In this document: positions 4,195-54,278 of the stretch, piece after piece
Layout: each line of letters opens with the position of its first letter
Numbering within the stretch: the first letter of the stretch is position 1
Source: Candidatus Poribacteria bacterium
Lineage (GTDB): Bacteria > Poribacteria > WGA-4E > WGA-3G
Assembly (NCBI GenBank): GCA_963665235.2
Contig: CAXXLX010000001.1
Coordinates: 3,552,001 to 3,616,000 of the forward strand
Direction: 5' to 3'
DNA length: 64,000 nt
The notes under the pieces: generated by a model
Databases searched by the model: none
What the model was told of the DNA's origin: nothing
Seen by the model: the letters and a program-made list of their open reading frames with translations, nothing else
Translations under genes and position numbers: made by a program

Positions 4195-4217
4195 ATCTTC
4201 GCCTCCTTGTTTTTCTA

Positions 4218-4335
4218 TTGGCAATTAGCGATTGGCAATTAGCAATTGGCAAGAGGTTTGTGATTATAGTCAGGTTTATGACGCGCGTCAGAAATGACTC
4301 CCTCTTGCTAACGGTTTCCACCAGCTAATCTGCCC
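4218..4335. repeat. Structured dispersed repeat family H (GCAATTA heptamers + GCAAGAG...CTCTTGC hairpin), copy a
   Basis: Same unit at ~4609, 6184, 6398, 25528, 29286, 51201, 51625. Confidence 0.85.
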
Positions 4336-4337
4336 CG

Positions 4338-4604
4338 TTACGCCTCTATATCCTCTATGGTTTGCACTTCTAACGCTTGTGTGAGGATTGAATCTAGGCG
4401 TTCGAGACTCCGCATTCTCCCGATTTTACGGGTGAGTGTATCGGGAATATCGCCAAAACGGAAGTGTAACACTTTCAGGATAGCCTCCCGCTTCGCACGA
4501 ACCACACCGCGCTGTTCACCGCGCTGTTCACCGCGCTGTTCACCGCGCTGTTCACCGATTTCTATACCTTGTTCCATCAATTCGTGTGCTATTGTGCGTG
4601 TCAT
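4338..4604 (-). CDS. Stand-alone duplicate of Rpn C-terminal module (RpnS-like), 88 aa, 4 GEQR repeats
   Basis: Near-identical to residues encoded by 4761-5015; upstream SD replaced by the repeat. Confidence 0.7.
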   Translation of the reverse strand: MTRTIAHELMEQGIEIGEQRGEQRGEQRGEQRGVVRAKREAILKVLHFRFGDIPDTLTRKIGRMRSLERLDSILTQALEVQTIEDIEA

Positions 4605-4608
4605 TGAA

Positions 4609-4757
4609 TTAGCAAATGGCAATTAGCAATTAGCAAGAGGTTGTGATTCTAAGAACATATCTGAAGCGCGTCAGAGGCATCTTCCTCTGGTTTCCAACGG
4701 TTTCCATAAGTCAGCGAATCTATAAACCAACAGCCAACAGCCAACAGCCAATCTGTC
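4609..4757. repeat. Repeat family H, copy b (between two RpnS modules)
   Basis: Heptamers + GCAAGAGGTTGTGATTCTAAG..TCTGAAGCGCGTCAGA core. Confidence 0.85.
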
Positions 4758-4760
4758 CCC

Positions 4761-5015
4761 TTACGCCTCTATATCCTCTATGGCTTGCGCTTCTAACGCT
4801 TGTGTATGGATTGAATCTAGGCGTTCGAGACTGCGCATTCTCCCGATTTTACGGGTGAGTGTATCGGGAATATCGCCAAAACGGAAGTGTAACACTTTCA
4901 GGATAGCCTCCCGCTTCGCACGAACCACACCGCGCTGTTCACCGCGCTGTTCACCGCGCTGTTCACCGATTTCTATACCTTGTTCCATCAACTCGTGTGC
5001 TATTGTGCGTTTCAT
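4761..5015 (-). CDS. Internal in-frame small ORF of rpn (RpnS-like antitoxin), 84 aa
   Basis: Perfect SD GGAGGT (5023-5028) 7 nt before ATG of MKRTIAHELMEQG, inside the rpn frame. Confidence 0.7.
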   Translation of the reverse strand: MKRTIAHELMEQGIEIGEQRGEQRGEQRGVVRAKREAILKVLHFRFGDIPDTLTRKIGRMRSLERLDSIHTQALEAQAIEDIEA

Positions 5016-5502
5016 TGAATTTACCTCCAAAGTAGGGGTATGTTTATCAACAAGTTCTATCAACGCTTCATGCTCCGCCGGAGGCCGGCGATACATGATA
5101 AGCGATAGAATATATTGAATTGCCTCACGTCTCTCAGCCGCCTGGTCCGCAGGAAGCGTATCCGTGTGCATTAGCATATCAACTAAGACACGACTTAGCT
5201 CCTCTGGGCTTGCGTGCTCTTTTTGCAGCACCGTAAGCAGCCAACCTATCAGATGTTCTGTCTGCGTTAGCACTTCCACCTCTGTCTCTTTGACATCCAG
5301 CTGCACCGTCTCAAACTTTGGAATAAAACGTTCCAGCTCCTTGGGGAGGTCCATGAGTGCTTCCAGGGTCAGCGGAACGTTCCAGCTCTGGTCGCCTGTG
5401 TAAAAGAGTATCGGCAGAATCGGGGACAAGCGGCGTTCACTTTTGGGAGGCTTGTCTTTCTCCCATCGTCTGATTTCTGCGTCCCATATCGATACCATGT
5501 AA

Positions 5503-5772
5503 TACCATTCCTAATTGAAAATGTCTCTTTGTAGTAGCATAAACTTCCAGTTTGTGCTTTGTAGTAGCATAAACTTCCAGTTTGTGCTTTGTAGTAGCAT
5601 AAACTTCCAGTTTGTGCTCTTTATTGTAGCATAAACTTCCAGTTTGTGCTCTTTATTGTAGCATAAACTTCCAGTTTGTGCTTTGTAGTAGCATAAACTT
5701 TTAGTTTGGGTCTTCCGTTCTCCGTTTCATTTCTAACAACCGGTAATGATAGAATAATTAATAAAAATGGTA
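5503..5772 (-). mobile_element. MITE family A (TACCATT..AATGGTA ends, TTA/TAA TSD) with 6 tandem REP-like hairpin units
   Basis: TIRs; TAA duplicated at 5500-5502 and 5773-5775; units GTAGCATAAACTTCCAGTTTGTG. Confidence 0.9.
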
Positions 5773-6093
5773 TAAGATAGAAAACGAAATCCCATCGTCT
5801 CGTCCACCGTCGATTGGTGTTCGATATGGATATGTATTATGACTTCATCGGTTTTATCGGCTGTTTGAAAAGGCGCACGATACAAAATATCCGCTTCTCG
5901 TTCCCGTAAGTCTCTCGGAATGAAACTCGTGCTAAGCCGCTCAAGCCCGCTAAAATTGATACGGGGGGCAAGGTCAGGGACAGCAATTTCTACCAACCCC
6001 TGAACGTTTACCGGTCTTTGAAGCAACCAGCGCAGGCTTCTGTCTGAAAAGTGTGCGACCTTTCCACCGAGTAAATCATTGAGAGCGGTTGTC

Positions 6094-6483
6094 TCTTTCG
6101 TTTCCTCTGCCATCTTTCCTCTCAGTTCCTTAGGAATTAAACAGTGTCGTCAAGTAAAATAGACAAGTTTAGTATAACACAATTTGGCAATTAGCAATTA
6201 GCAATTAGCAAGAGGTTGTGATTCTAAGCACATATCTGACGCGCGTTAGAGTCCTCTTTCTCTTGCCAACGGTTTCCAATAGCCAATAGCCATTTGGGGC
6301 GTTCGTTTCTTTCGTTTCCTCTGCCATCTTTCCTCTCAGTTCCTTAGGAATTAAACAGTGTCGTCAAGTAAAATAGACAAGTTTAGTATAACACAATTTG
6401 GCAATTAGCAATTAGCAATTAGCAAGAGGTTGTGATTCTAAGCACATATCTGACGCGCGTCAGAGTCCTCTTTCTCTTGCCAA
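6094..6483. repeat. Tandem ~214-bp-period duplication of the rpn start/leader plus repeat family H (copies c,d)
   Basis: 6094-~6270 repeated at 6308-~6483. Confidence 0.85.
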
Positions 6484-6514
6484 TTGCCATAAGCCAATAA
6501 CCAATAGCCATTTT

Positions 6515-6545
6515 AGTATAACACAATTTGACGAAACATGGCAAA
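6515..6545 (-). promoter_or_regulatory. Putative sigma70 promoter of the rpn locus (TTGCCA-N17-TATACT)
   Basis: Consensus-like boxes; nearly the same block recurs at ~51168-51196. Confidence 0.55.
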
Positions 6546-6677
6546 CTTTTTTTGCCGGGTGTGTAAAGTTTTTGTCCATAAGTGTCAGTTTATGGTAAAT
6601 AGAAAAATAGAAAGAACGCGCTGTGCTGGCGACCGCCACCGCAAAAATGCAAAAATGTCGAAAACTAAATAGTCCTG

Positions 6678-15903: not shown

Positions 15904-15997
15904 ATGGGTATTGCGAAAATTAGGAATATCGCTCCCCCCTGACTAATAACGCGCACAACGACATGCGGGAGTGTGTCTACTCCCTTAAAATTACTTA

Positions 15998-16957
15998 TTA
16001 GTCATCGTCGTCCTCATCATCGTCGTCGTCCTCATCATCGTCGTCGTCCTCATCATCGTCGTCGTCCTCATCATCGTCGTCGTCCTCATCATCGTCGTCG
16101 TAATCATCATCGTCGTCGTCCTCATCATCGTCGTCGTAATCATCATGATCATCGTCGTAATCATCATCGTCGTCATCGTCATAACGAAGGTTTGGAAAAT
16201 CTGCTGGGTCTTGTTGATTAATCCAATCTCTGAAGAGTTGGATTTGTGCAGTAGTCAATGGTGGTCCGCCCGGCGGCATTCTCCCTGATACGATTTCTTC
16301 GATTATATCACTACTTCGAGCATTGCCCGGCCTGAATATAGCACCCTCATCTCCACCTTTTATGAAAGCTTGGTATGTCCTGAAATCAAGATTGTAGGGG
16401 CCATTGGCATCATGACAACCAGAATAAGCACACCTTGATGTGAGAATAGGTAAAAGGTGTTGGTTAAAGGAAACTGTAGATGGCGGTGTTTGCGGTGTTT
16501 GCGGGTTTTGTGTCGGTGGTGTTCCAGTCGTTGGTTGTTGATTATTAATCCAAACTGTAAACGCTTGAATTTCTGCGTCACTCAACTTAGGCCCACCAAT
16601 CGGCATTCTCCCTGATACAATTTCTTCAATAATATCACTACTTTGCGCATTGCCTGGAGTGAATACCGGTCCTCCATCTCCTCCCTTTATGAAAGCCTGA
16701 TATGTGCTGAAATCAAGGTTTTGCGGTCCGCCAGCGACGTGACACCCCGTATACGCGCACTTTGCTGTGAGAATAGGCAGAAGGTGTTGGTTAAATGAGG
16801 TTTCAGTTCCACCATTTTCCGTAGGTGAAGACTGCACATTTTCGGATGGGGTATTATTATTGGGTAGCAAAAGATTAACGTTCTGAGAATCGCATCCCAA
16901 CAAGCAAAATAGCAATCCGATGGTGAGTAGGAAAGACTTCTGTATGTTTACAATCAT
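15998..16957 (-). CDS. Lipoprotein with two Planctomycete-type cytochrome c domains (CX4CH) and a ~60-aa poly-Asp tail
   Basis: LLGC lipobox; CAYTGCH and CAYSGCH; distal RMP; duplicated domain; D-rich tail. Confidence 0.82.
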   Translation of the reverse strand: MIVNIQKSFLLTIGLLFCLLGCDSQNVNLLLPNNNTPSENVQSSPTENGGTETSFNQHLLPILTAKCAYTGCHVAGGPQNLDFSTYQAFIKGGDGGPVFTPGNAQSSDIIEEIVSGRMPIGGPKLSDAEIQAFTVWINNQQPTTGTPPTQNPQTPQTPPSTVSFNQHLLPILTSRCAYSGCHDANGPYNLDFRTYQAFIKGGDEGAIFRPGNARSSDIIEEIVSGRMPPGGPPLTTAQIQLFRDWINQQDPADFPNLRYDDDDDDDYDDDHDDYDDDDEDDDDDDYDDDDEDDDDDEDDDDDEDDDDDEDDDDDEDDDD

Positions 16958-20888: not shown

Positions 20889-21150
20889 CTTATGTTCCAT
20901 CTTTTTTGTCTGAATGCCCGTCGCATTTGGGCGAGTACGCCGCAAATCGCGGATTAGCGCGGAGAACGCGGAGAACGCGGAGTTTAAGAGACATAGTCTC
21001 TTTAGAACGGGATTGTGAGCTCTTAGGATATCGCGTGCGAAGCACGCTCCTACAGAAGAACGTACGAAAACTTTACACACCTGTCCCTATCTTAAGAATT
21101 TGATAATTTTTAAAATTTGTGGTATATTTTGCAAAACTCTGGAATAGTTA

Positions 21151-21597
21151 TACCATTTTTATTAATTATTCTATCATTACCGGTTGTTAGAAATCAAACG
21201 GAGAACGGAAGACACAAACTAAAAGTTTATGCTACAATAAAGAGCACAAACTGGAAGTTTAGGCTACAATAAAGCACACAAACTGGAAGTTTATGCTACA
21301 ATAAAGCACACAAACTGGAAGTTTAGGCTACAATAAAGCACACAAACTGGAAGTTTAGGCTACAATAAAGCTACAATAAACACAAACTGGAAGTTTAGGC
21401 TACAATAAAGCACACAAACTGGAAGTTTATGCTACAATGGAGAACGGCACAAACTGGAAGTTTATGCTACAATAAAGCACACAAACTGGAAGTTTATGCT
21501 ACAATAAAGCACACAAACTGGAAGTTTAGGCTACAATAAAGCACACAAACTGGAAGTTTATGCTACGATAAAGAGACATTTTCAATTAAAAATGGTA
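21151..21597 (+). mobile_element. MITE family A with 11 REP-like units
   Basis: TACCATT..AATGGTA ends, TTA on both sides. Confidence 0.9.
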
Positions 21598-21654
21598 TTA
21601 GTAGGGACATGAGGGGAACAGCCGGTGAATGCGGGGCACCACGGGAGAATTTAA

Positions 21655-22416
21655 TTGCTTGATGTCCAAAATCTCTGTAAATCTTTTGACAAAAAATCGT
21701 TTCTGATGGAACTGACATTTCAGATGGCAGCCGGGGAGGTACTTTTTCTGGTCGGTGAAAACGGGGCTGGCAAAACGCTTCTGCTGAACATTTTGGCGAC
21801 CTTGGTTGAACCGACATCAGGCAGTGTCACTATTGATGGTATGGATGCCTTTTCAAACTTGAAACAGGTGCGGCCCTTGATAGGATATATTCCGAGTGGG
21901 TTTGATGGATACCCGGCTTTATCTGTCGTTGATTATCTCAATTTTTTCGCCGCTGCATACAAATTAGATAAGCAGGAACGTGCCGCTGCAATTGATGCTG
22001 TGCTGGAATTAATGGACATTGAGCAGCTCCGTGACATCAAAATCGGTATTTTGTCAACGGGAGAACGTCAAAGGCTCCTGTATGCGAAAACTTTTTTGCA
22101 CGAACCGATGTTATGGCTCATTGATGAACCGTTAGCAGCACTAGACCCGCGCGGGCAAATTGAGATGGTCGAGTTAATCGGTGAACTGAAGGCAATAGGA
22201 AAAACGATTGTAATTGCTACTAATCGTCTCGACGATGTACAAAAGTTGAATGCGGTTGCTTCTGAGGATAATCTTCTCGGTATTCTTCACGATGGACAGT
22301 TTGCGGTATTCAATACGTTTAGGCAGTTGGAACAGGAAATTAAAGATGCTAATCGTTCAGAAAGCCTTCCAGCGAATTGGTTGATTGAACGTTATTTGGA
22401 GGTTACAAATTTGTAA
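21655..22416 (+). CDS. ABC transporter ATP-binding protein
   Basis: GENGAGKT, LSTGERQR, IDEP. Confidence 0.9.
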   Translation: MLDVQNLCKSFDKKSFLMELTFQMAAGEVLFLVGENGAGKTLLLNILATLVEPTSGSVTIDGMDAFSNLKQVRPLIGYIPSGFDGYPALSVVDYLNFFAAAYKLDKQERAAAIDAVLELMDIEQLRDIKIGILSTGERQRLLYAKTFLHEPMLWLIDEPLAALDPRGQIEMVELIGELKAIGKTIVIATNRLDDVQKLNAVASEDNLLGILHDGQFAVFNTFRQLEQEIKDANRSESLPANWLIERYLEVTNL

Positions 22417-23189
22417 TGGCTGATATTGGAAAATTTTTTCAGGAGAATGGATACTATTTCGCAAAAGGGGTCTATTCCCCCGAAGAGCTCAAATTAATGG
22501 AGCACGACTTCGATCGGGTGGTGGACCAATTGTTGAAAAGTGATGAGAACGTCAATGCACGTTGGGGCGGCAGATTGATGGATGCCCTTGATGGCGGGCA
22601 GTCTGTTATTATTCATACGCATAATATACAGAACTATTCTGCTGTGTGGATGCAGGCGTTTCTGCAAGAGAAATTTCTTGACGCAACGGAAGCTATCCTC
22701 GGTCCGGATATCATGCTTCACCATTCCAAACTTTTCTGTAAACCGCCGGAGGAGGGCTCCCCTTTCCCGATGCATCAGGACTGGCAGTATTTTCCATCCG
22801 TTAAAGACACGATGATGGCTGCTATCATCTATGTGTCGGATGCGACCGATGAGATGGGGTGTGTCCGCGTGTACCCCGGCTCTCATAAGGAGCTCGGGCG
22901 GACCGGTGGCATGATGGGTCGTGGACAGAACGAGGAAATTACGGAGCGGTACCCGATTGAGAAGGCAACCGTTTTAGAGGCGGAAGCGGGGGATGTGCTT
23001 TTCTTTAGCTATTTCACATTGCACGGCTCCATGCCGAACCGTTCTAACCGGACGCGAAAAAGTGTGCTCGTCCAAATGCATGCAGGTGATGATCAGATTG
23101 AGGCTGAAAATAGACACACTAATGTTCAGTTAGTCCTTCGGGGTTGGAATCATTTCGCAACCCGCTCTTCTGTCGGAAGCATTCGTTAA
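22416..23189 (+). CDS. Phytanoyl-CoA dioxygenase (PhyH) family protein
   Basis: HQD...HGS..N.S...R 2OG-Fe(II) motif. Confidence 0.92.
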   Translation: MADIGKFFQENGYYFAKGVYSPEELKLMEHDFDRVVDQLLKSDENVNARWGGRLMDALDGGQSVIIHTHNIQNYSAVWMQAFLQEKFLDATEAILGPDIMLHHSKLFCKPPEEGSPFPMHQDWQYFPSVKDTMMAAIIYVSDATDEMGCVRVYPGSHKELGRTGGMMGRGQNEEITERYPIEKATVLEAEAGDVLFFSYFTLHGSMPNRSNRTRKSVLVQMHAGDDQIEAENRHTNVQLVLRGWNHFATRSSVGSIR

Positions 23190-23235
23190 GGATGCAATTG
23201 GGATATCACACTTGTAGGAACGAAGAAGCATGTTA

Positions 23236-23758
23236 TACCATTTTTATTAACAGGACTTACGCAAATTTAGCAGAAACCTCGTAGGGGCGGGGTCCCCCCG
23301 CCCGCTAGGTCTCGCTCTAGATCCCACTATCATTAGGGTTTATCAACGCGCTGCGTAAGTCCTGATTAATTATTCTATCATTACCGGTTGTTAGAAATGA
23401 AACGGAGAACGGAAGACACAAACTAAAAGTTTATGCTACAAGAAAGTGCACAAACTGGAAGTTTATGCTACAAGAAAGTGCACAAACTGGAAGTTTATGC
23501 TACAAGAAAGTGCACAAACTGGAAGTTTATGCTACAAGAAAGTGCACAAACTGGAAGTTTATGCTACAAGAAAGTGCACAAACTGGAAGTTTATGCTACA
23601 AGAAAGTGCACAAACTAAAAGTTTATGCTACAAGAAAGTGCACAAACTGGAAGTTTATGCTACAATAAAGAGCACAAACTAAAAGTTTATGCTACAATAA
23701 AGTGCACAAACTGGAAGTTTAGGCTACAATAAAGAGACATTTTCAATTAGAAATGGTA
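23236..23758 (+). mobile_element. MITE family A with 10 REP-like units and a nested MITE B
   Basis: TIRs; TTA TSD at 23233-23235 and 23759-23761. Confidence 0.9.
23251..23364 (+). mobile_element. MITE family B nested in MITE A (TSD ATTAA)
   Basis: CAGGACTTACGCA..TGCGTAAGTCCTG; ATTAA on both sides. Confidence 0.9.
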
Positions 23759-23791
23759 TTAGTAGGTATCTCTTAGTCAGAGGGATTTAAG

Positions 23792-25342: not shown

Positions 25343-25537
25343 ATGACAAAAAATAAAGACGAACACGTTACCAGTATATCTAAGGCACAAACTCTGGAGG
25401 AGATAGCCGACTACTGGGACACACATAGCTTGGCTGACCACTGGGATGAAACCCATGAAGTCAATTTTGAGGTTCGGATGCAGCGAAAGTGTCGTGTAAC
25501 GCTTACCCCAGAGATTTATGGGAAAATTGGCGAATAG
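25343..25537 (+). pseudogene. CopG/BrnA-like antitoxin, C-terminally truncated by repeat H
   Basis: EEIADYWDTHSLADHWD motif; ORF ends inside the heptamer repeat. Confidence 0.6.
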
Positions 25538-25652
25538 CGATTGGCGATTAGCAATTGGCAAGAGAAGAAAGAAAAGAGGGAGAGGTTTTGACGCGCGACA
25601 TAAACCTGCTTAGAATCTGAAACTCTTGCTATAGGTTTCCAACGGTTTCCAA
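25528..25652. repeat. Repeat family H, copy e (core inverted relative to flanks)
   Basis: Heptamers, GCAAGAG..CTCTTGC, GGTTTCCAACGGTTTCC tail. Confidence 0.75.
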
Positions 25653-29284: not shown

Positions 29285-29285
29285 T

Positions 29286-29397
29286 GGCAATTGGCAATTA
29301 GCGATTGGCAATTAGCAAGAGGTTTGTGATTCTAATAACATATCTGAAGCGCGTCAGAACCCTCTTCCTCTTGCTATAGGTCTCCAACGGTTTCTAC
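29286..29397. repeat. Repeat family H, copy f
   Basis: Same heptamer and core hairpin. Confidence 0.85.
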
Positions 29398-36190: not shown

Positions 36191-38272
36191 ATGAAAATGA
36201 CAAATTTCTATTTTGTTCTCACGTTAACTTTAGTTTTAAGCGTTTGCTTTGTTGTATCACCCTCTCATGCAGGACGTGCTATAGCTTCCGGTAGTGCAGA
36301 TGCCAATTCCGCCTCTGGACAGGTCTATTTGCATCTGTCTGAGGGGGACATGCCTTACGTGACCGGTTTCGGAATGGTCGAAATTGATGTTCAGGATGGA
36401 GACTTTCATATCGTTGAGGGCGAACTTTGGGCAAGCTACGAGGATAGTTTAACCCACAATACGATTTCGGGTGTCGTGGCTGGTACCCCAGCTCAGGTGA
36501 AAATTGTTTTGGCTATGGGTCATATAGGGCATGACCAAACCACAGGCGATACCTTTGAAACGATGTACACGCCATCAGATAATACCGAATCCAATCAACC
36601 CCCCGATAACAATGATTCCAAGGACGAAAATCCACTTGACCCTAACATGATGCGCCCTGGAGATTCCGATGACGAGAATCAGAGTCCTAGCCTGCATCTG
36701 AATAGGGAGAGAAGGGATAGAAACCCCGACGACAATAACCAAAACCCACTTGACCCTAACATGATGCGCCCTGGAGATTCCGATGACGAGAATCAGAGTC
36801 CTAGCCTGCATCTGAATAGGGAGAGAAGGGATGAAAACCCGGATAACAATGACCAAAACCCGTTCGACACTAACATGGCACCGCCTAATAATCGCAACGA
36901 TAACCAAAGTCCGTTGCAAGTCACCCTGAATCCGAATAGCGAGAGAAGGGATGAAAACCCGGATAACAATGACCAAAACCCGTTCGATACTAACATGGCA
37001 CCGCCTAATAATCGCAACGATAACCAAAGTCCGTTGCAAGTCACCCTGAATCCGAATAGCGAGAGAAGGGATGAAAACCCGGATGACAATGACCAAAACC
37101 CGTTCGATACTAACATGGCACCGCCTAATAATCGCAACGATAACCAAAGTCCGTTGCAAGTCACCCTGAATCCGAATAGCGAGAGAAGGGATGAAAACCC
37201 GGATGACAATGACCAAAACCCGTTCGATACTAACATGGCACCGCCTAATAATCGCAACGATAATCAGCCTCCCAGGTTGAATTTGGATAACGAGAGAAGG
37301 GATAGAAACCCGGATAACAATAACCAGAATTCGTTCAACGATCTCATGGCACCGCCTAATCAGGGCAACGATAACGATAATCCGTTGCAAGTCACCCTGA
37401 ATCCGAATGCCGAGACAAAGGATGAAAACCCGGATAACAATAACCAAAACTCATCCAACCCTAACATGGCACCGCCTAATCAGGGCAACGATAACGATAA
37501 TCCGTTGCAAGTCACCCTGAATCCGAATGCCGAGACAAAGGATGAAAACCCGGATAACAATAACCAAAACTCATCCAACCCTAACATGGCACCGCCTAAT
37601 CAGGGCAACGATAACGATAATCCGTTGCAAGTCACCCTGAATCCGAATGCCGAGACAAAGGATGAAAACCCGGATAACAATAACCAAAATCCAGGACCTA
37701 AACCGAACGTCAATAGCGAGACAAAGGATAGAAACCCGGATGACAACAACCAAAACTCATTAAACCGTAGTGGGATGCGCCGTGATGATTCCAATAACGA
37801 GACTCCAGCACTCGGTCCCAACGTCAAAGAGGAGAGAAGGGATAGAGATTCCGGCGATGATAACGAAGATTCATCCGACAATACCAGGAGGCGCTCCAAG
37901 GAGGACGATAACGAAAATCGGGAACGCGGTCCCAACGTCAATGATGAAAAAGTGGTAGATGATGCATGTCGCAACATCGTTGAGTACTTTCAGACCGGCG
38001 AGGGCAAAGCGAAAGCGGTCGATGCAACGGAACGGCTCCTGATGTATGCAGAAAGCATCGCAGCGTCTGAACTTCCGACAAATGCTGAACGGGCCAAGGA
38101 ATATGCTGAGTTTCATGAAGAGTTCGGTAAAGTCCTCACGGAATTCGCTGCAGGCCTTGAACAGGAGGGCGTTTCCGATCAGACGCGCCAACAGTGGGAG
38201 ACCATCGTCCCGTTAGTCAGGCTGGCACAACGCGAATTTAGCCAAAGAGAGGTTGACCCTGAAACCCCATAA
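36191..38272 (+). CDS. Secreted Asn/Asp/Pro-rich protein with ~10 tandem 38-40 aa repeats
   Basis: Signal peptide, AAGGAG RBS, 114-120 bp tandem repeats at ~36620-37760. Confidence 0.85.
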   Translation: MKMTNFYFVLTLTLVLSVCFVVSPSHAGRAIASGSADANSASGQVYLHLSEGDMPYVTGFGMVEIDVQDGDFHIVEGELWASYEDSLTHNTISGVVAGTPAQVKIVLAMGHIGHDQTTGDTFETMYTPSDNTESNQPPDNNDSKDENPLDPNMMRPGDSDDENQSPSLHLNRERRDRNPDDNNQNPLDPNMMRPGDSDDENQSPSLHLNRERRDENPDNNDQNPFDTNMAPPNNRNDNQSPLQVTLNPNSERRDENPDNNDQNPFDTNMAPPNNRNDNQSPLQVTLNPNSERRDENPDDNDQNPFDTNMAPPNNRNDNQSPLQVTLNPNSERRDENPDDNDQNPFDTNMAPPNNRNDNQPPRLNLDNERRDRNPDNNNQNSFNDLMAPPNQGNDNDNPLQVTLNPNAETKDENPDNNNQNSSNPNMAPPNQGNDNDNPLQVTLNPNAETKDENPDNNNQNSSNPNMAPPNQGNDNDNPLQVTLNPNAETKDENPDNNNQNPGPKPNVNSETKDRNPDDNNQNSLNRSGMRRDDSNNETPALGPNVKEERRDRDSGDDNEDSSDNTRRRSKEDDNENRERGPNVNDEKVVDDACRNIVEYFQTGEGKAKAVDATERLLMYAESIAASELPTNAERAKEYAEFHEEFGKVLTEFAAGLEQEGVSDQTRQQWETIVPLVRLAQREFSQREVDPETP

Positions 38273-49695: not shown

Positions 49696-50562
49696 ATGAA
49701 AATACCGACAATTTCCATCGCGTCACATCGCGTCACGCGTCTCATTATCGGGGGTAATCCGTATAGCGGCATCTCACACCGCTCCGCCGCGGCGTCGAAA
49801 GCCATGGAGGATTACTATACGACGCACCAAATTATAGCGGACCTCCGGGAAGCGGAACAGAACGGCATTAACACCGTGCTCGCGCGCGCGGATAGGCATA
49901 TCATGCGTACCCTCAACGAATACTGGAACGCAGGCGGCACGCTTCAGTGGATAGCGCAAACCCCCAAGGATACCGAATACGCCAACCTTGACGAATACCT
50001 ACAAATTATTGCACGTTACGCACCTATCGCAATTTATCATCACGGCGGTACTACCGATAAGTTGTATGCCGCCGGACAACTCCATTCGTTGCAAGACAGC
50101 CTCAAACGCATTCGGGACCTCGGCTGTGCTGTCGGACTCGGTACACATGACCCGCACATTCTCAAGTACTGCTACGCGGAAGGATATGACGTTGACTTTT
50201 ATGTGTGTGCATTGTATAATCATACACAGCATAGAGAACTTTATCTGCCGGACGACCGTGATACGGCATTTGCCGCCATCGAAGCGGTACCGCTGCCGAT
50301 AATTGCCATAAAGGTGTTAGCAGCTGGCAGAAATGAACCACGTGAAGCCTTCCAACTCGCGCTTGAAAATATTAAACCGAGTGACGCAATGGCGGTTGGC
50401 ATGTACACACAATTCCATCCCGCTCAGATTCGCCAAAATGCCTCAACCGTCACTAGACTTATCAGGAAATTAGACGATGAACCGAATTGTAGAACCGGAG
50501 GTCATGGATACACAGGAGGCCGCCGAAGCTTACGATGCAATACAACATGGGGAGGTCGATGA
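49696..50562 (+). CDS. Aldo/keto-reductase-like TIM-barrel protein
   Basis: RLIIGGNP, IAIYHHG, IAIKVLAAGR. Confidence 0.7.
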   Translation: MKIPTISIASHRVTRLIIGGNPYSGISHRSAAASKAMEDYYTTHQIIADLREAEQNGINTVLARADRHIMRTLNEYWNAGGTLQWIAQTPKDTEYANLDEYLQIIARYAPIAIYHHGGTTDKLYAAGQLHSLQDSLKRIRDLGCAVGLGTHDPHILKYCYAEGYDVDFYVCALYNHTQHRELYLPDDRDTAFAAIEAVPLPIIAIKVLAAGRNEPREAFQLALENIKPSDAMAVGMYTQFHPAQIRQNASTVTRLIRKLDDEPNCRTGGHGYTGGRRSLRCNTTWGGR

Positions 50563-51130
50563 TGCCTTCGTTACGCGCGCTATTGCACTCGGTGCAAATA
50601 CTGGACGTTTTATAGATGTCGGCACCGGCCCTGCACAAATTCCCATCTTGCTGACGCAACGGTGCCCAAATATCCACATCACCGCAATTGATCTTTCCGA
50701 GGAGATGCTAAAAATAGCAAAGCAGCGCATTGCTGATGCTGACCTCACCGACTGTATCACCCTTGAACGGGTCGACGCAAAAGCCTTACCCTATCCCGAT
50801 AATACCTTTGATGGACTTATCTCTAACAGCATTGTACATCATATCCACGATGCAGTCCGTGTTCTCCATGAGATGGCGCGGGTCGTGAAACCGACCGGTG
50901 CAGTTTTAATCCGCGACCTTATCCGTCCTGAAACGCCAGCGGATGCACAAGCCTTTGTTGACCGTTATGCTGCTGGGGATACGCCTGAGCAACAGAAGCT
51001 GTATTACGATTCTTTCCTTGCCGCGTTCACACTTGCCGAAGTCGATGAGATGTTAGCACAGATAGACATGCCGGGGGCAGTCGTCGTGCAAAGCACCGAT
51101 CGGCATTGGTCCATTGAGCGTGGGGCTTAA
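50477..51130 (+). CDS. Class I SAM-dependent methyltransferase
   Basis: IDVGTGP, IDLS, FDGLISNSIVHH. Confidence 0.92.
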   Translation: MNRIVEPEVMDTQEAAEAYDAIQHGEVDDAFVTRAIALGANTGRFIDVGTGPAQIPILLTQRCPNIHITAIDLSEEMLKIAKQRIADADLTDCITLERVDAKALPYPDNTFDGLISNSIVHHIHDAVRVLHEMARVVKPTGAVLIRDLIRPETPADAQAFVDRYAAGDTPEQQKLYYDSFLAAFTLAEVDEMLAQIDMPGAVVVQSTDRHWSIERGA

Positions 51131-51157
51131 GCACCTCGAGATATTTATAGAACTCTG

Positions 51158-51750
51158 CAAAAAAAGTTTGCCATGTTTTGCAAATTATGTTATACTAAAA
51201 TGGCTATTGGCTATTGGCTATTGGCTTATGGCAAGAGAAAGAGGACACTGACGCGCAACAGAAAATTGCTTAGAATCATAACCTCTTGCTAATTGCTAAT
51301 CGCTACTTGCCATTTGCTAAATAGACGGACACCTACTTTGGAGGTAAATTCAATGAAACGCACAATAGCACATGAGTTGATGGAACAAGGTATAGAAATC
51401 GGTGAACAGCGCGGTGAACAGCGCGGTATAGAAATCGGTGAACAGCGCGGGGTGGTTCGTGCGAAGCGGGAAGATATTCTAAAAGTGCTATATTCCCGTT
51501 TTGACTATGTTCCCGATACACTCACCCGTAAAATCGGCAGAATGCGCAGTCTCGAACGGCTAGATTCAATCCTCATGCAGGCGTTAGAGGTGCAATCCAT
51601 GGAGGATATAGAGTGGTAATGCGGCAGATTGGCTATTGACTTATGGAAACCGTTGATAAGAGAAGAGCCCTCTGACGCGCTTCAGATATGTGCTTAGAGG
51701 CACAAACCTCTTGCTAATTGCTAATCGCTAATTGCCATTTGCTAATTCAA
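51158..51750 (+). other. Mini Rpn cassette: promoter, repeat H, RpnS-like ORF, repeat H
   Basis: 51158-51240 matches the reverse complement of ~6470-6555; 51625-51750 matches the reverse complement of ~4603-4757. Confidence 0.75.
51353..51619 (+). CDS. Orphan RpnS-like small protein (88 aa)
   Basis: GGAGGT RBS + MKRTIAHELMEQG; close variant of 4761-5015. Confidence 0.78.
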   Translation: MKRTIAHELMEQGIEIGEQRGEQRGIEIGEQRGVVRAKREDILKVLYSRFDYVPDTLTRKIGRMRSLERLDSILMQALEVQSMEDIEW

Positions 51751-51794
51751 TATCAACCCTAATTCCTATACCGTTGTCCTGAGGCACACACGCA

Positions 51795-52046
51795 ATGCTG
51801 TTTATTATTTTTGTCCTTCTACTTCCGCTTGCCTTTTGGGTGATTTTACATTTTGCATCTAAACGGGACGCTGACGAAGAAGCAGAACCGAAAGCACTGA
51901 TGGAAGAATGCGCGCTCTGCCGAAACGAATTTTTGATGAGCGAGCTCCTTGAAAAAGAGGTTGGCAATTACGGCAGAATCTACTGCTTTTGTGGACAGTG
52001 TATTGAAAACCTCTATACTGAGTATCAAGAAAAAGACACACCTTAG
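51795..52046 (+). CDS. Small membrane protein with Cys-rich (CxxC..CxCxxC) domain
   Basis: N-terminal TM, CALC, CFCGQC. Confidence 0.65.
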   Translation: MLFIIFVLLLPLAFWVILHFASKRDADEEAEPKALMEECALCRNEFLMSELLEKEVGNYGRIYCFCGQCIENLYTEYQEKDTP

Positions 52047-52062
52047 CACAGGAGAGTAAACT

Positions 52063-53106
52063 ATGTATGATTTGGTCACGTTTGGTGAGGCGATGATTCG
52101 GCTTACCGCCCCGGAGTTTATGCGGCTGGAGCAGGTCACATCGCTTGAAATCACAGCCGGGGGCGCGGAGATGAACGTCGCTGTCAACGCCGCACAACTC
52201 GGTTTACGCACAGCATGGGTCTCGCGACTCGTGGATAATTGGTCCGGCCGCTATATTCGTAACAAGGGACGCGAACTTGGCGTAGACATGTCTAACATCG
52301 TGTGGGTTGATTTCGACGGGGTCGGCTTCGAACGAAATGGGTTTTATCACCTTGAAATGGGAGCGGGCCCGCGAGCGAGTAGCGTGACCTATGACCGCGG
52401 ACATTCGGCAATCTCTAACGTTCAGCCGGGTGAAATTGATTGGGCATCTATATTCAGCAGTGCGCGGTGGTTTCATCTGAGTGGCATCACACCGGCGTTA
52501 TCGGAATCAGCGGCAGCAGTTTCTGCTGAAGCTCTTCAAGCCGCACAGGCAGCAGGTGTCAAAACAAGCTACGACCTTAACTTCCGTTCTAAACTGTGGA
52601 ATGCCGAACAGGCGCAAGCGGTGAACCGGCCGATGATGAAGCACGTCTCTGTGCTCATCGGCAACGAAGAGGATTTCGAAAAATCACTCGGCTTCGCTGC
52701 GGAAGGCGCAACCGAGTCTTACAGTAAACTTGAGCCTGAGAGCTATAAAGCGGTTGCACAGCGAGTCAAAGACGCTTTTCCGAACATCGAGATGATTGGG
52801 ACAACACTACGGGACGCTAAAACTGGATGGCTCAACGATTGGCGCACGCTCCTGTTTGATGGCGAAGAATTTTATCTCTCACGTATCTACGAAAATTTAG
52901 AATTAGTCGATCGAGTCGGCGGGGGGGATAGTTTTTCTTCCGGGTTAATCTACAGCCTATTGAGCGGCAAACCTCCACAGGAGGCGGTTGATTTTGCTGG
53001 CGGGTATTCTGCCCTGGCGCATACCTTCCCCGGTGATTTCAACTGGGCAACAGCAGCGGAAGCGGAAAAAGCGATGCAGGCGGGAGGTGTCCGAATCAGT
53101 CGTTAG
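52063..53106 (+). CDS. PfkB family sugar kinase (KDG-kinase-like)
   Basis: FGEAM, GGAEMN, YDLNFR, DRVGGGDSF. Confidence 0.92.
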   Translation: MYDLVTFGEAMIRLTAPEFMRLEQVTSLEITAGGAEMNVAVNAAQLGLRTAWVSRLVDNWSGRYIRNKGRELGVDMSNIVWVDFDGVGFERNGFYHLEMGAGPRASSVTYDRGHSAISNVQPGEIDWASIFSSARWFHLSGITPALSESAAAVSAEALQAAQAAGVKTSYDLNFRSKLWNAEQAQAVNRPMMKHVSVLIGNEEDFEKSLGFAAEGATESYSKLEPESYKAVAQRVKDAFPNIEMIGTTLRDAKTGWLNDWRTLLFDGEEFYLSRIYENLELVDRVGGGDSFSSGLIYSLLSGKPPQEAVDFAGGYSALAHTFPGDFNWATAAEAEKAMQAGGVRISR

Positions 53107-54278
53107 CTTTTCTCAAGCAGAAAAAGGAATTCGCGATTCGGTTTTTCGGCTGTGTTCACCCATTCGTCCGTCCATTTCATGCCAGCCATGACGTTCTTTT
53201 TATAGTTAACTTCAAGCACAGCGAGAAGTTTTCCGTTTTTTCGCATGACATCGTTCAATTCTTCGGCAGTGGCGCGCCCCCCGGAGCTGTATGATAGGAG
53301 AATCCAACGAGCCTGTGCTCTCTGTATCAATTGTGCTATTGCCTCAACAGCGATGAAGTGGCCGTCCGCGTTACGGCGGAATTCCTCAAAGATGGAGGCT
53401 GCGAGAACGTCTGATGTATCTTTGCGCCGCTTTGCCTTGCCGAAAAGGGGTGGCGTGTCAAAAAGAATGATGCTCTGCCAGAGATGATAGTAGGCGGCAT
53501 ATCTGACGCGAGAGGCAGGCATCTTTTCGTTGTTGGAACCGTACGGCGGATCGAAATAGGCAAGGTCAACGGAGACACGCGGGAGAAGCTCAAAGATGTC
53601 GCTTCGGAAAACCTGATGCGCTGCTACTGTGCTAACTATATTTGGCACCTTAAGCAGAAGCGATTTATAGGCGCGCGGTGCCCAGGTTTTGAGGTACGCG
53701 GAATGATGTCCGAGGCTGCTGTCAACTGCATCGAGGGCTAAAATGAGGCTTGTCAGTGCCACGGCTTTATCAATTGACGTAAGTTTGAGATTCTCAATTT
53801 CCTGCCGAATTGCATCCAGTTTACGGGTATTGTGTCGCTGCCACGGTTTCTTAAGACCGTCCGCTTGGATTGCACATCCGCTATTGACATCCCCCCCGTA
53901 ATGTTCTGTGAACCAACCATCAATAGGTGGAACACTGTTTAGATGGTCAATAAGGGATTGATAGGCGGAACTCGGTTTGTTGTTGAGCAGATAACACATT
54001 CCGAAAACTTCCGACCAAGGGGCGATGTCGTTGCAAACAACAGTGTAACCGCGTTGGGCGAACGCTTGCGAGACGCGTGTCGTGCCTGCAAAGCCATCTA
54101 GAATTGTCTTAGCGTCGACCCTGTTCGCAAGTTGGAGTATTTGCGGGATAAGCTTTAGCTTGGAACCGATGTACTTTATGCCTTGTGTAGAAGGCACATC
54201 AAGCATGAGGTTTTCAAAGAGTCGGCGAGTTTGCGTCACGGTTCTATTCCTGAAAAGAAATTTAACCCTTGTGGCCAT
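53103..54278 (-). CDS. N6-adenine DNA methyltransferase (D12-type), orphan; start may be ~54206
   Basis: YIGSK, DGFAGT, DPPY. Confidence 0.88.
   Translation of the reverse strand: MATRVKFLFRNRTVTQTRRLFENLMLDVPSTQGIKYIGSKLKLIPQILQLANRVDAKTILDGFAGTTRVSQAFAQRGYTVVCNDIAPWSEVFGMCYLLNNKPSSAYQSLIDHLNSVPPIDGWFTEHYGGDVNSGCAIQADGLKKPWQRHNTRKLDAIRQEIENLKLTSIDKAVALTSLILALDAVDSSLGHHSAYLKTWAPRAYKSLLLKVPNIVSTVAAHQVFRSDIFELLPRVSVDLAYFDPPYGSNNEKMPASRVRYAAYYHLWQSIILFDTPPLFGKAKRRKDTSDVLAASIFEEFRRNADGHFIAVEAIAQLIQRAQARWILLSYSSGGRATAEELNDVMRKNGKLLAVLEVNYKKNVMAGMKWTDEWVNTAEKPNREFLFLLEKS

Follow-up and report, generated by a model that had tools for sequence, protein, structure and literature searches.

The 64,000-nucleotide (nt) stretch analysed here (the window; positions 3,552,001 to 3,616,000 of contig CAXXLX010000001.1, from a Candidatus Poribacteria bacterium) carries at about 51 kb a small open reading frame (ORF), RpnS51, related to the C-terminal domain of Rpn (recombination-promoting) nucleases, a toxin-antitoxin family in which the antitoxin is encoded within the toxin gene. 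Judged by its sequence, RpnS51 is an RpnS-type ORF without a nuclease, the 3' end of an rpn gene of the clade termed clade A. With about even confidence, the reading favoured here is that of a free-standing RpnS which was built by recombination at copies of a dispersed hairpin repeat, called H below, and which is most likely an orphan antitoxin, left over after the loss of its toxin. Its promoter and ribosome site suggest that it is probably still expressed. Coordinates are positions in the window, and C1 and C2 denote loci elsewhere in the same 5.31-Mb genome. The locus is laid out as follows.

51159-51196, plus strand: promoter block, with an A-tract, the -35 box TTGCCA (51168-51173), a 17-nt spacer, TG and the -10 box TATACT (51191-51196)
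51197-51320, plus strand: H51a, a copy of the hairpin repeat H of about 124 nt, found with the repeat-H profile
51321-51352, plus strand: 32 nt of rpn-derived sequence ahead of the ATG, bearing GGAGG at 51340-51344, 8 nt from the ATG at 51353
51353-51619, plus strand: RpnS51, 88 codons and a stop (...LYSRFDYVPD...EDIEW), a free-standing Rpn C-terminal (RpnS/DUF4351-like) domain
51623-51749, plus strand: H51b, a second copy of H, which begins 4 nt past the RpnS51 stop

An earlier note on this DNA had described a promoter, two repeats, a Shine-Dalgarno sequence and an RpnS ORF here, and all of them are present at the place it gave. The promoter (TTGCCA-N17-TATACT, 51168-51196, plus strand) is strong by its sequence and scores 10 out of 12 in a consensus scan, with TG ahead of the -10 box. 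A scan of the locus found no terminator-like site between the promoter and RpnS51 and none after the ORF, and no Rfam family matches within 50900-52100 at E ≤ 1. Folding of the whole transcript gave long-range pairing between H51a and H51b, which is not significant (z = -1.9). Transcription from this promoter would yield an mRNA with the H hairpin in a leader of about 155 nt, and the GGAGG site would support translation of an 88-amino-acid (aa) protein with three predicted helices.

The assignment to the Rpn family is carried by the paralogues. In tblastn and HMMER comparisons, the RpnS51 protein is 90% identical to the copy at C1:1596k, 85% to module 2 (a free-standing RpnS near the start of the window), 87% to the C-terminus of the rpn gene next to module 2 (the window rpn) and 74% to the C-terminus of an intact Rpn with a 399-aa frame at C1:3816k (rpn3816), which matches PF04754 (97 bits) and DUF4351. 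Against the C-termini of frames bearing PF04754, the PD-(D/E)XK YhgA-like domain, the identity is 74-87%. The earlier note's description of RpnS51 as a third RpnS variant is borne out by the 85-90% identity to the closest copies, which is beyond chance, and its statement that the nuclease domain is absent agrees with a frame of only 108 codons from stop to stop and with the absence of the locus from the genome's 11 PF04754 matches.

RpnS51 also appears to have brought its start signal along from within a gene. The 17-mer GGAGGTAAATTCAATGA, which runs up to and across the ATG, has four copies in the genome: one at RpnS51 and three in frame within rpn genes, of which one is intact while insertions interrupt the other two. 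The 32-nt stretch ahead of the ATG is coding sequence in full-length rpn (..TPTLEVNS-M..), where it would serve as an internal start signal. As far as sequence can tell, GGAGGTAAATTCAATGA inside rpn is the internal start signal expected of a gene within a gene. Moreover, RpnS51 contains five 4-residue units (GIEI GEQR GEQR GIEI GEQR), the first of them at residue 13, and an AlphaFold2 model places helices at residues 5-49, 55-63 and 67-79 (mean pLDDT, the per-residue model confidence, 80.6). These properties agree with those described for RpnS proteins, namely a three-helix bundle with a long first helix, repeats located 8-20 residues after the Met and an internal translation start, as given in the available text of Zhong et al. 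(PMC10400941).

The genome holds many such domains. A family profile made from 25 sequences was searched on stop-to-stop frames, which were called long at 280 aa or more and short below 280 aa. It found 59 frames with an RpnS-like domain, 24 long and 35 short, and for 27 of the short frames the nearest long copy is over 3 kb away. Of the 24 long frames, at least 15 have a GGAG or GAGG followed by ATG or GTG at the boundary of the domain, as do 23 of the 35 short ones. Arrays of one long copy followed by one to three short copies occur, e.g., at C2:15-17k and C1:1162-1163k, and in relatives RpnL, the nuclease-bearing form, is often trailed by one to three solo copies. Intact Rpn, which the earlier note presupposed, is present as five full-length PF04754 frames of 363-406 aa.

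Similar proteins are found outside this genome as well. In a large protein collection, 22 proteins of 48-154 aa match RpnS51 at E ≤ 0.001, and some of them carry the name "DUF4351 domain-containing protein". The family profile matched 13,916 cluster representatives in public data at E ≤ 0.001; among the best 150 of these, 75 are at most 160 aa long, and many short database entries may be gene fragments from short contigs. Relatives of the RpnS51 ORF in genome and metagenome contigs, searched among records from sources other than the window's own genome, are all distant and mostly share the EQRG repeat (24 and 23 loci). Stand-alone RpnS is an ordinary state of the Rpn family.

The promoter ahead of RpnS51 belongs to a block of about 45 nt (A-tract, TTGCCA, 17-18-nt spacer, TG, TATACT) which occurs at 11 loci of the genome with 87-95% identity. 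Four of these loci lie ahead of rpn genes or remnants, one ahead of RpnS51 and six ahead of unrelated ORFs. At five of the 11, H follows TATACTAAA at the identical base. At three loci, duplications of 18-43 nt of promoter and 5' untranslated region (5'UTR) lie beyond H, where the -10 box is re-created behind the repeat, and the intact rpn at C1:3817k has the promoter block without H. The fixed position of H after the promoter, together with a promoter lacking H at an rpn gene, indicates that promoter plus H is a repeated module in its own right. The earlier note's claim that RpnS51 has the same promoter as the rpn locus is accurate as to kinship of the two blocks and too strong as to sameness: the block at the window rpn has an 18-nt spacer, and the identity is about 93%.

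The repeat H was surveyed with an nhmmer profile, whose 586 matches were merged to 323 distinct loci, equally shared between the strands; 240 of these reach 80 nt or more. H has a length of about 120 nt, and its consensus folds to one long imperfect hairpin (-58 kcal/mol). The arms are inverted arrays of heptamers in variable number, and the flanks of the 45 copies examined are unrelated. The copies stand one by one across the genome, at a median distance of 10.8 kb on C1, and 159 of the 240 longer copies lie wholly outside ORFs of at least 150 aa, as against 10% of 120-nt sites drawn at random. In a search of 31 genomes, of which 30 are relatives from other genera, H was found only in the present one, apart from one partial match of 31 nt. 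No Rfam family matches H. Its ends are hard to define, and no constant target duplication was seen by eye in the 45 copies. The genome has 13 Y1_Tnp matches, and for the 12 that were checked no gene of this transposase type, similar to the RAYT (REP-associated tyrosine transposase), lies within 800 nt of H; the nearest H stands 864 nt away, and the other distances are 2.5-27 kb. An interpretation of ORF plus H as an integron cassette with an attC site was rejected by reasoning, as H is scattered singly and forms no array; no integrase search was made. Two further copies of H in the window, at 25527-25647 and 29285-29391 (both minus strand), lie away from rpn sequence.

Around the relatives of RpnS51, H occurs far more often than its genome density predicts. 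Within 150 nt of RpnS51-related loci, 12 copies were observed against 0.54 expected, an excess which is overstated since these loci are mutual duplicates and H favours intergenic DNA. In five of the six copies closest to RpnS51, H lies 0-9 nt past the stop codon. H bounds internal rpn deletions at C1:1596k, at C2:180k and at module 2, with differing junctions. The junction which the earlier note saw as shared between RpnS51 and module 2 is indeed shared: the 18-mer GCCATTTGCTAATTCAAT has exactly two copies in the genome, at 51734-51751 and ahead of module 2 (about 4603-4620, minus strand). Furthermore, H51b terminates in the 16-mer GCCATTTGCTAATTCA, which is found genome-wide at three junctions only, all of them linked to rpn.

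A comparison of the locus segment by segment gave the following nearest relatives.

Promoter: about 93% identity, several loci
H51a, 5' 96 nt: 100%, C2:686k, where promoter and H stand ahead of another gene
32 nt ahead of the ATG: 100%, rpn3816
RpnS51 ORF, first 100 nt: 98%, C1:1596k
RpnS51 ORF, middle 88 nt: at most 87.5% to any copy
RpnS51 ORF, last part: 92%, rpn3816
H51b: 87-90%, several loci

At its 3' end, H51a matches the type seen at C1:1596k. As the nearest relative changes from segment to segment, the locus is a patchwork, as would arise from one crossover in H plus gene conversion. A crossover within H would have joined a generic promoter-plus-H module to a fragment consisting of H and an rpn 3' end, gene conversion with other paralogues would then have turned the ORF into a mosaic, and H51b would be the H that trails the stop codon in the closest copies. 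The unit was thus probably not moved as a cassette and was pieced together by recombination at copies of H. The earlier note had proposed a compact unit that disseminates, with promoter and repeats as its parts. This is not supported by the mosaic, whose relatives lie at different loci, nor by the counts: promoter, H and RpnS are combined at one locus of the genome, RpnS51 alone; H lies within 150 nt on both sides of three of the 59 RpnS-domain frames, on one side of six and near none of the remaining 50; and both promoter (11 loci) and H (323 loci) are generic repeats of the genome.

The likely partner of RpnS51 was sought through the number of 4-residue units. According to Zhong et al. (2023, PNAS; PMC10400941, available text), RpnS blocks only an RpnL with an equal number of 4-residue repeats, and a commentary (PMC10400984, available text) states that repeat variation prevents inhibition in trans. 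If RpnS51 acts like the E. coli proteins, its long first helix with five units would pair with the corresponding domain of an RpnL whose helix is just as long, and the nuclease would thereby be inhibited. The units (GIEI, GEQR or GEKR), counted by eye, are as follows.

RpnS51, solo: 5
C1:1596k, solo or remnant: 5
Module 2, solo: 5
C1:3976k, solo: 5
Window rpn, RpnL split by a miniature inverted-repeat transposable element (MITE): 4
C1:1855k, RpnL interrupted by this MITE, in which an IS630-type element is nested: 7
C1:3816k, intact RpnL: 11
C1:3278k, intact RpnL: 3
C2:764k, intact RpnL: 13
C2:681k, 284-aa frame: 6

No five-unit RpnL was found among the related RpnL genes counted, intact or split (3, 4, 7, 11 and 13). 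Five units occur in no intact RpnL, and both of the closest RpnL genes are interrupted by a MITE or insertion sequence; we therefore infer that RpnS51 is most likely an orphan antitoxin. The earlier note's idea of trans immunity against the genome's own paralogues fits poorly with these numbers, as five units in RpnS51 face 3, 4 (split), 7 (split), 11 and 13 in RpnL.

Several observations weigh against the reading of RpnS51 as an orphan antitoxin. The Pfam model DUF4351 (PF14261) has no match on RpnS51 at E ≤ 0.01; module 2 scores 24.8 bits (cut-off 25), the C-terminus of the window Rpn 22 bits, and a six-frame search of the genome gave nine places, among which the RpnS51 locus is not found. 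As the model misses RpnS51, its family membership is derived from the paralogues. None of the sequence and fold searches retrieved the solved RpnA-S structure (PDB 7TH0, cited in PMC10400941): no relevant match came from sequence or profile searches of the PDB, Foldseek against the PDB gave nothing at E ≤ 0.001, and a wide VIA-align search returned only generic helical bundles (Z at most 6.6). With a helical protein of this small size, such misses say little either way. The rule on repeat number is known for E. coli RpnC only and may fail here, so that a resident partner is possible. The changes private to RpnS51 are 3 synonymous and 5 non-synonymous (in 4 codons), which is compatible with neutrality (binomial p = 0.27), so that the solo copy itself may not be under selection. 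Contigs of an RNA library are 91-94% identical over the RpnS51 ORF, with 4-11 differences, and hence not locus-specific; they may stem from paralogues, other strains or DNA carry-over. Finally, the in-situ history cannot be reconstructed from the 30 relatives, all of which belong to other genera. Of the further profile collections searched, PADLOC has no model matching the intact RpnL or RpnS51, and the sole NCBIfam match is a sub-threshold one to TIGR01784 on the N-terminal piece of the window rpn.

The private changes, in particular, can be read in another way, which is the main rival: RpnS51 may be a dead relic, a recently stranded rpn 3' fragment without function whose promoter is an accident of recombination between two copies of H, and one of many rpn pieces left behind by rearrangements at repeats. 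We regard this as possible and clearly less probable than the orphan antitoxin. Decayed rpn pieces do exist in the genome. The piece at C2:180k comprises codons 1-95, two copies of H and the last 45 or so codons; that at C1:1596k comprises codons ~55-95, H, the last ~120 codons and H, without the nuclease core; and at C1:3799k the C-terminus is replaced. The lack of a five-unit RpnL among those counted suits a relic as well as an orphan antitoxin. On the other hand, RpnS51 is open throughout its 88 codons, with an in-frame repeat tract, a preserved ATG and an ideally spaced GGAGG. In pairwise comparisons with paralogues, dN/dS (the ratio of non-synonymous to synonymous change) ranges from 0.25 to 0.51; Fisher's test gives p = 0.001 for module 2, 0.049 for the copy at C1:1596k and 0.14 for the remaining comparison. 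The earlier note had asked for a check on dN/dS; the ORF is open and the pairwise ratios are below 1, and the private changes fit neutrality. The intact rpn3816 shows 1 synonymous and 7 non-synonymous private changes, and a count of such changes therefore cannot separate decay from the diversifying change reported for the domain. The 23 short frames that keep ribosome site and start would yield products of 70-90 aa, which is hard to obtain via decay alone, and the commonness of stand-alone forms in public data likewise speaks against a relic.

The surroundings of the unit bear on the same question. Its flanks are as follows.

Left neighbour: methyltransferase gene, with its stop at 51130
51795-52046, plus strand: conserved small ORF of 83 aa, the native right flank
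52063-53106, plus strand: PfkB-family kinase gene, following the 83-aa small ORF

In the 30 relatives searched, the methyltransferase part and the part with small ORF and kinase match separate places; the left and right flanking genes are adjacent in none of them, and none has the RpnS51 unit. As the flanking genes are not neighbours in relatives, the unit sits at a synteny break, without an empty site for comparison, which is what a relic could also show. Homology to relatives picks up again at about 51749, to the right of H51b. In relatives, the small ORF has its own promoter (TTGACA-N17-TATAGT), and in the window H51b occupies the position of the -35 box. Small ORF and kinase may now depend on read-through from the RpnS51 promoter, in keeping with the lack of a terminator-like site after the ORF. 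If RpnS51 were a relic, any transcript would mainly serve these two genes, whose conserved -35 box H51b displaced. The public read sets (four runs, used as contigs) all break inside H. A second sample of the same study covers the left edge (50000-51217) with 3 differences and the right edge (51720-52193) with none, and a related population diverges from the window sequence at 51120. Read joints that skip 411-494 nt from H51a to H51b have sides of only 21-72 nt, which may belong to other copies of H, and they are hence no evidence for an allele lacking RpnS.

The orphan antitoxin, as the favoured reading, also has to be held against the proposal of the earlier note, a minor rival. It saw in RpnS51 an expressed, repeat-bounded unit which spreads RpnS variants, forming a library of trans-acting antitoxins against the genome's own Rpn nucleases. 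Several facts agree with such a library: the 27 unlinked short frames, most short frames having ribosome site and start, the three copies bounded by H on both sides, the solo copies that trail RpnL in relatives, and the five-unit helix shared by four solo copies of the clade. We nevertheless consider a library unlikely. The combination of promoter, H and RpnS is unique in the genome, H-bounded units have different ends from one locus to the next, promoter and H are generic, and 50 of the 59 frames have no H within 150 nt. Moreover, as far as the available texts go, RpnS acts only on an RpnL with equal repeats (PMC10400941) and variation prevents trans inhibition (PMC10400984), and none of the related RpnL genes has five units.

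A further and quite improbable reading places H at the centre. H would be the substrate of a recombination which excises and duplicates RpnS modules and couples them to the portable promoter plus H; the genome would thereby actively generate a pool of unlinked RpnS copies (27 far from long copies), and the five-unit helices could await RpnL variants that arise or arrive. In such a process, the Rpn nucleases themselves may start the recombination. Zhong et al. (PMC10400941, available text) speculated that Rpn nucleases start the recombination that gives rise to downstream RpnS copies.

Free-standing RpnS as such is already known, and RpnS51 reveals no new kind of system. The earlier note knew of no description of the arrangement; the available text of PMC10400941 reports separately encoded RpnS, with the annotation DUF4351, e.g., in E. 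coli, ypaA (= rpnE-Ss), which lies downstream of rpnE, and rpnC-Ss. Like these free-standing RpnSs, RpnS51 repeats an Rpn C-terminal domain, begins at what is the internal start in full-length members of the family, has 4-residue repeats in its first helix, and derives from duplication or recombination of a parent gene. Module 2 is an exact match to the described arrangement downstream of rpn. In contrast to the ypaA type, the closest rpn of the same clade is 45 kb away from RpnS51, and the closest long frame with the domain 38 kb; RpnS51 has its own promoter (the generic promoter-plus-repeat module), bounds formed by hairpin repeats and a mosaic drawn from several paralogues. The E. coli rpn genes are without flanking repeats in what is available of PMC10400941, and a limited literature search, with sources seen in part, found no description of a repeat-bounded or promoter-coupled solo RpnS. 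Stand-alone PF14261 proteins from cyanobacteria, Verrucomicrobia, Planctomycetes and others share the domain and size of RpnS51, which, unlike them, falls below the Pfam threshold.

Two further classes offer themselves for comparison. Orphan antitoxins of type II toxin-antitoxin systems are a known state, and RpnS51 resembles them in that it is of antitoxin type, has no toxin gene linked to it and lies in a genome rich in paralogous systems. It differs in copying the toxin's own C-terminal domain, with a specificity thought to be set by helix length and not by a separate fold. Dispersed hairpin repeats of the REP/REPIN type (repetitive extragenic palindromes and the mobile elements formed by them) and of the MITE type are likewise a known class. 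H is similarly short and palindromic, with hundreds of mostly intergenic copies, and unlike a REPIN it has no RAYT gene flanked by the repeat (12 Y1_Tnp matches checked). For a MITE, terminal inverted repeats and a target-site duplication of fixed length would be expected; H has inverted arms of variable length, and no constant duplication was seen by eye in 45 copies, whose ends are hard to define. Other genomes may likewise have hairpin repeats of their own beside RpnS modules. One relative, from a different genus, has copies of another small hairpin repeat, GGGTAGGC..GCCTACCC, with arms up to 100% complementary, strewn through an RpnL/solo-RpnS region (G003:C1:5256692-5259934).

Modestly new here are the presence of H, a repeat specific to this genome, wherever this rpn clade shows a rearrangement junction, the capture of a generic promoter-plus-repeat module and the size of the solo-RpnS population. 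RpnS51 would be a clean natural example of how an antitoxin encoded within another gene comes to have a separate gene. Thanks to the internal ribosome site and ATG, any rpn 3' fragment could be translated once it is placed behind a promoter, and landing would have occurred here via a dispersed hairpin repeat already sitting behind a generic promoter. The scale of the Rpn expansion in the genome (24 long and 35 short domain-bearing frames) adds to the interest, and the natural set of RpnS and RpnL with 3 to 13 units can be used to test the generality of the E. coli rule on repeat number.

The other rpn-derived features of the window lie close to its start.

4338-4622, minus strand: module 2, a free-standing RpnS of about 90 codons, directly downstream of the window rpn
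4761-6113, minus strand: window rpn (Transposase_31 and DUF4351), split by a MITE into an N-terminal piece (5733-6113) and a C-terminal piece (4761-5498)
5503-5772, minus strand: 270-nt MITE inside the window rpn, with the ends TACCATT/AATGGTA and TTA duplicated at 5500-5502 and 5773-5775
6184-6553, minus strand: 5' region of the window rpn, with a promoter block (6515-6553, 18-nt spacer) followed by H (6398-6514)

Module 2 is bounded by H on both sides (4217-4329 and 4607-4752). The N-terminal piece of the window rpn matches PF04754, and the C-terminal piece matches PF04754 and DUF4351. Without the MITE and one copy of TTA, the frame would be continuous again (..FRFLSY|MVSIWD..). The core of the MITE consists of 30-32-nt tandem repeats, and its first 190 or so nt are very abundant genome-wide. 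At the identical site, the rpn at C1:1852-1855k carries the MITE with a nested gene for a 395-aa IS630-type transposase (DDE_3 and HTH). In the 5' region of the window rpn, a duplicate of the -10 box, 5'UTR and first 10 codons lies beyond H, followed by a second H (6184-6297).

Downstream of the kinase, a Type II N6-adenine DNA methyltransferase is encoded at 53103-54278 (minus strand; PADLOC MTase_II, E = 7.5e-161; Pfam MethyltransfD12), and the neighbouring proteins scanned include no restriction-enzyme-like family. Beyond it lie a xylose-isomerase-like TIM barrel protein and then a radical SAM/SPASM protein. Elsewhere in the window, a repeat finder reported tandem-repeat tracts at 15966-16217, 21097-23766 and 36666-37796, with units of the 9-nt GAT/GAC type, of 32 nt and of 120 nt.

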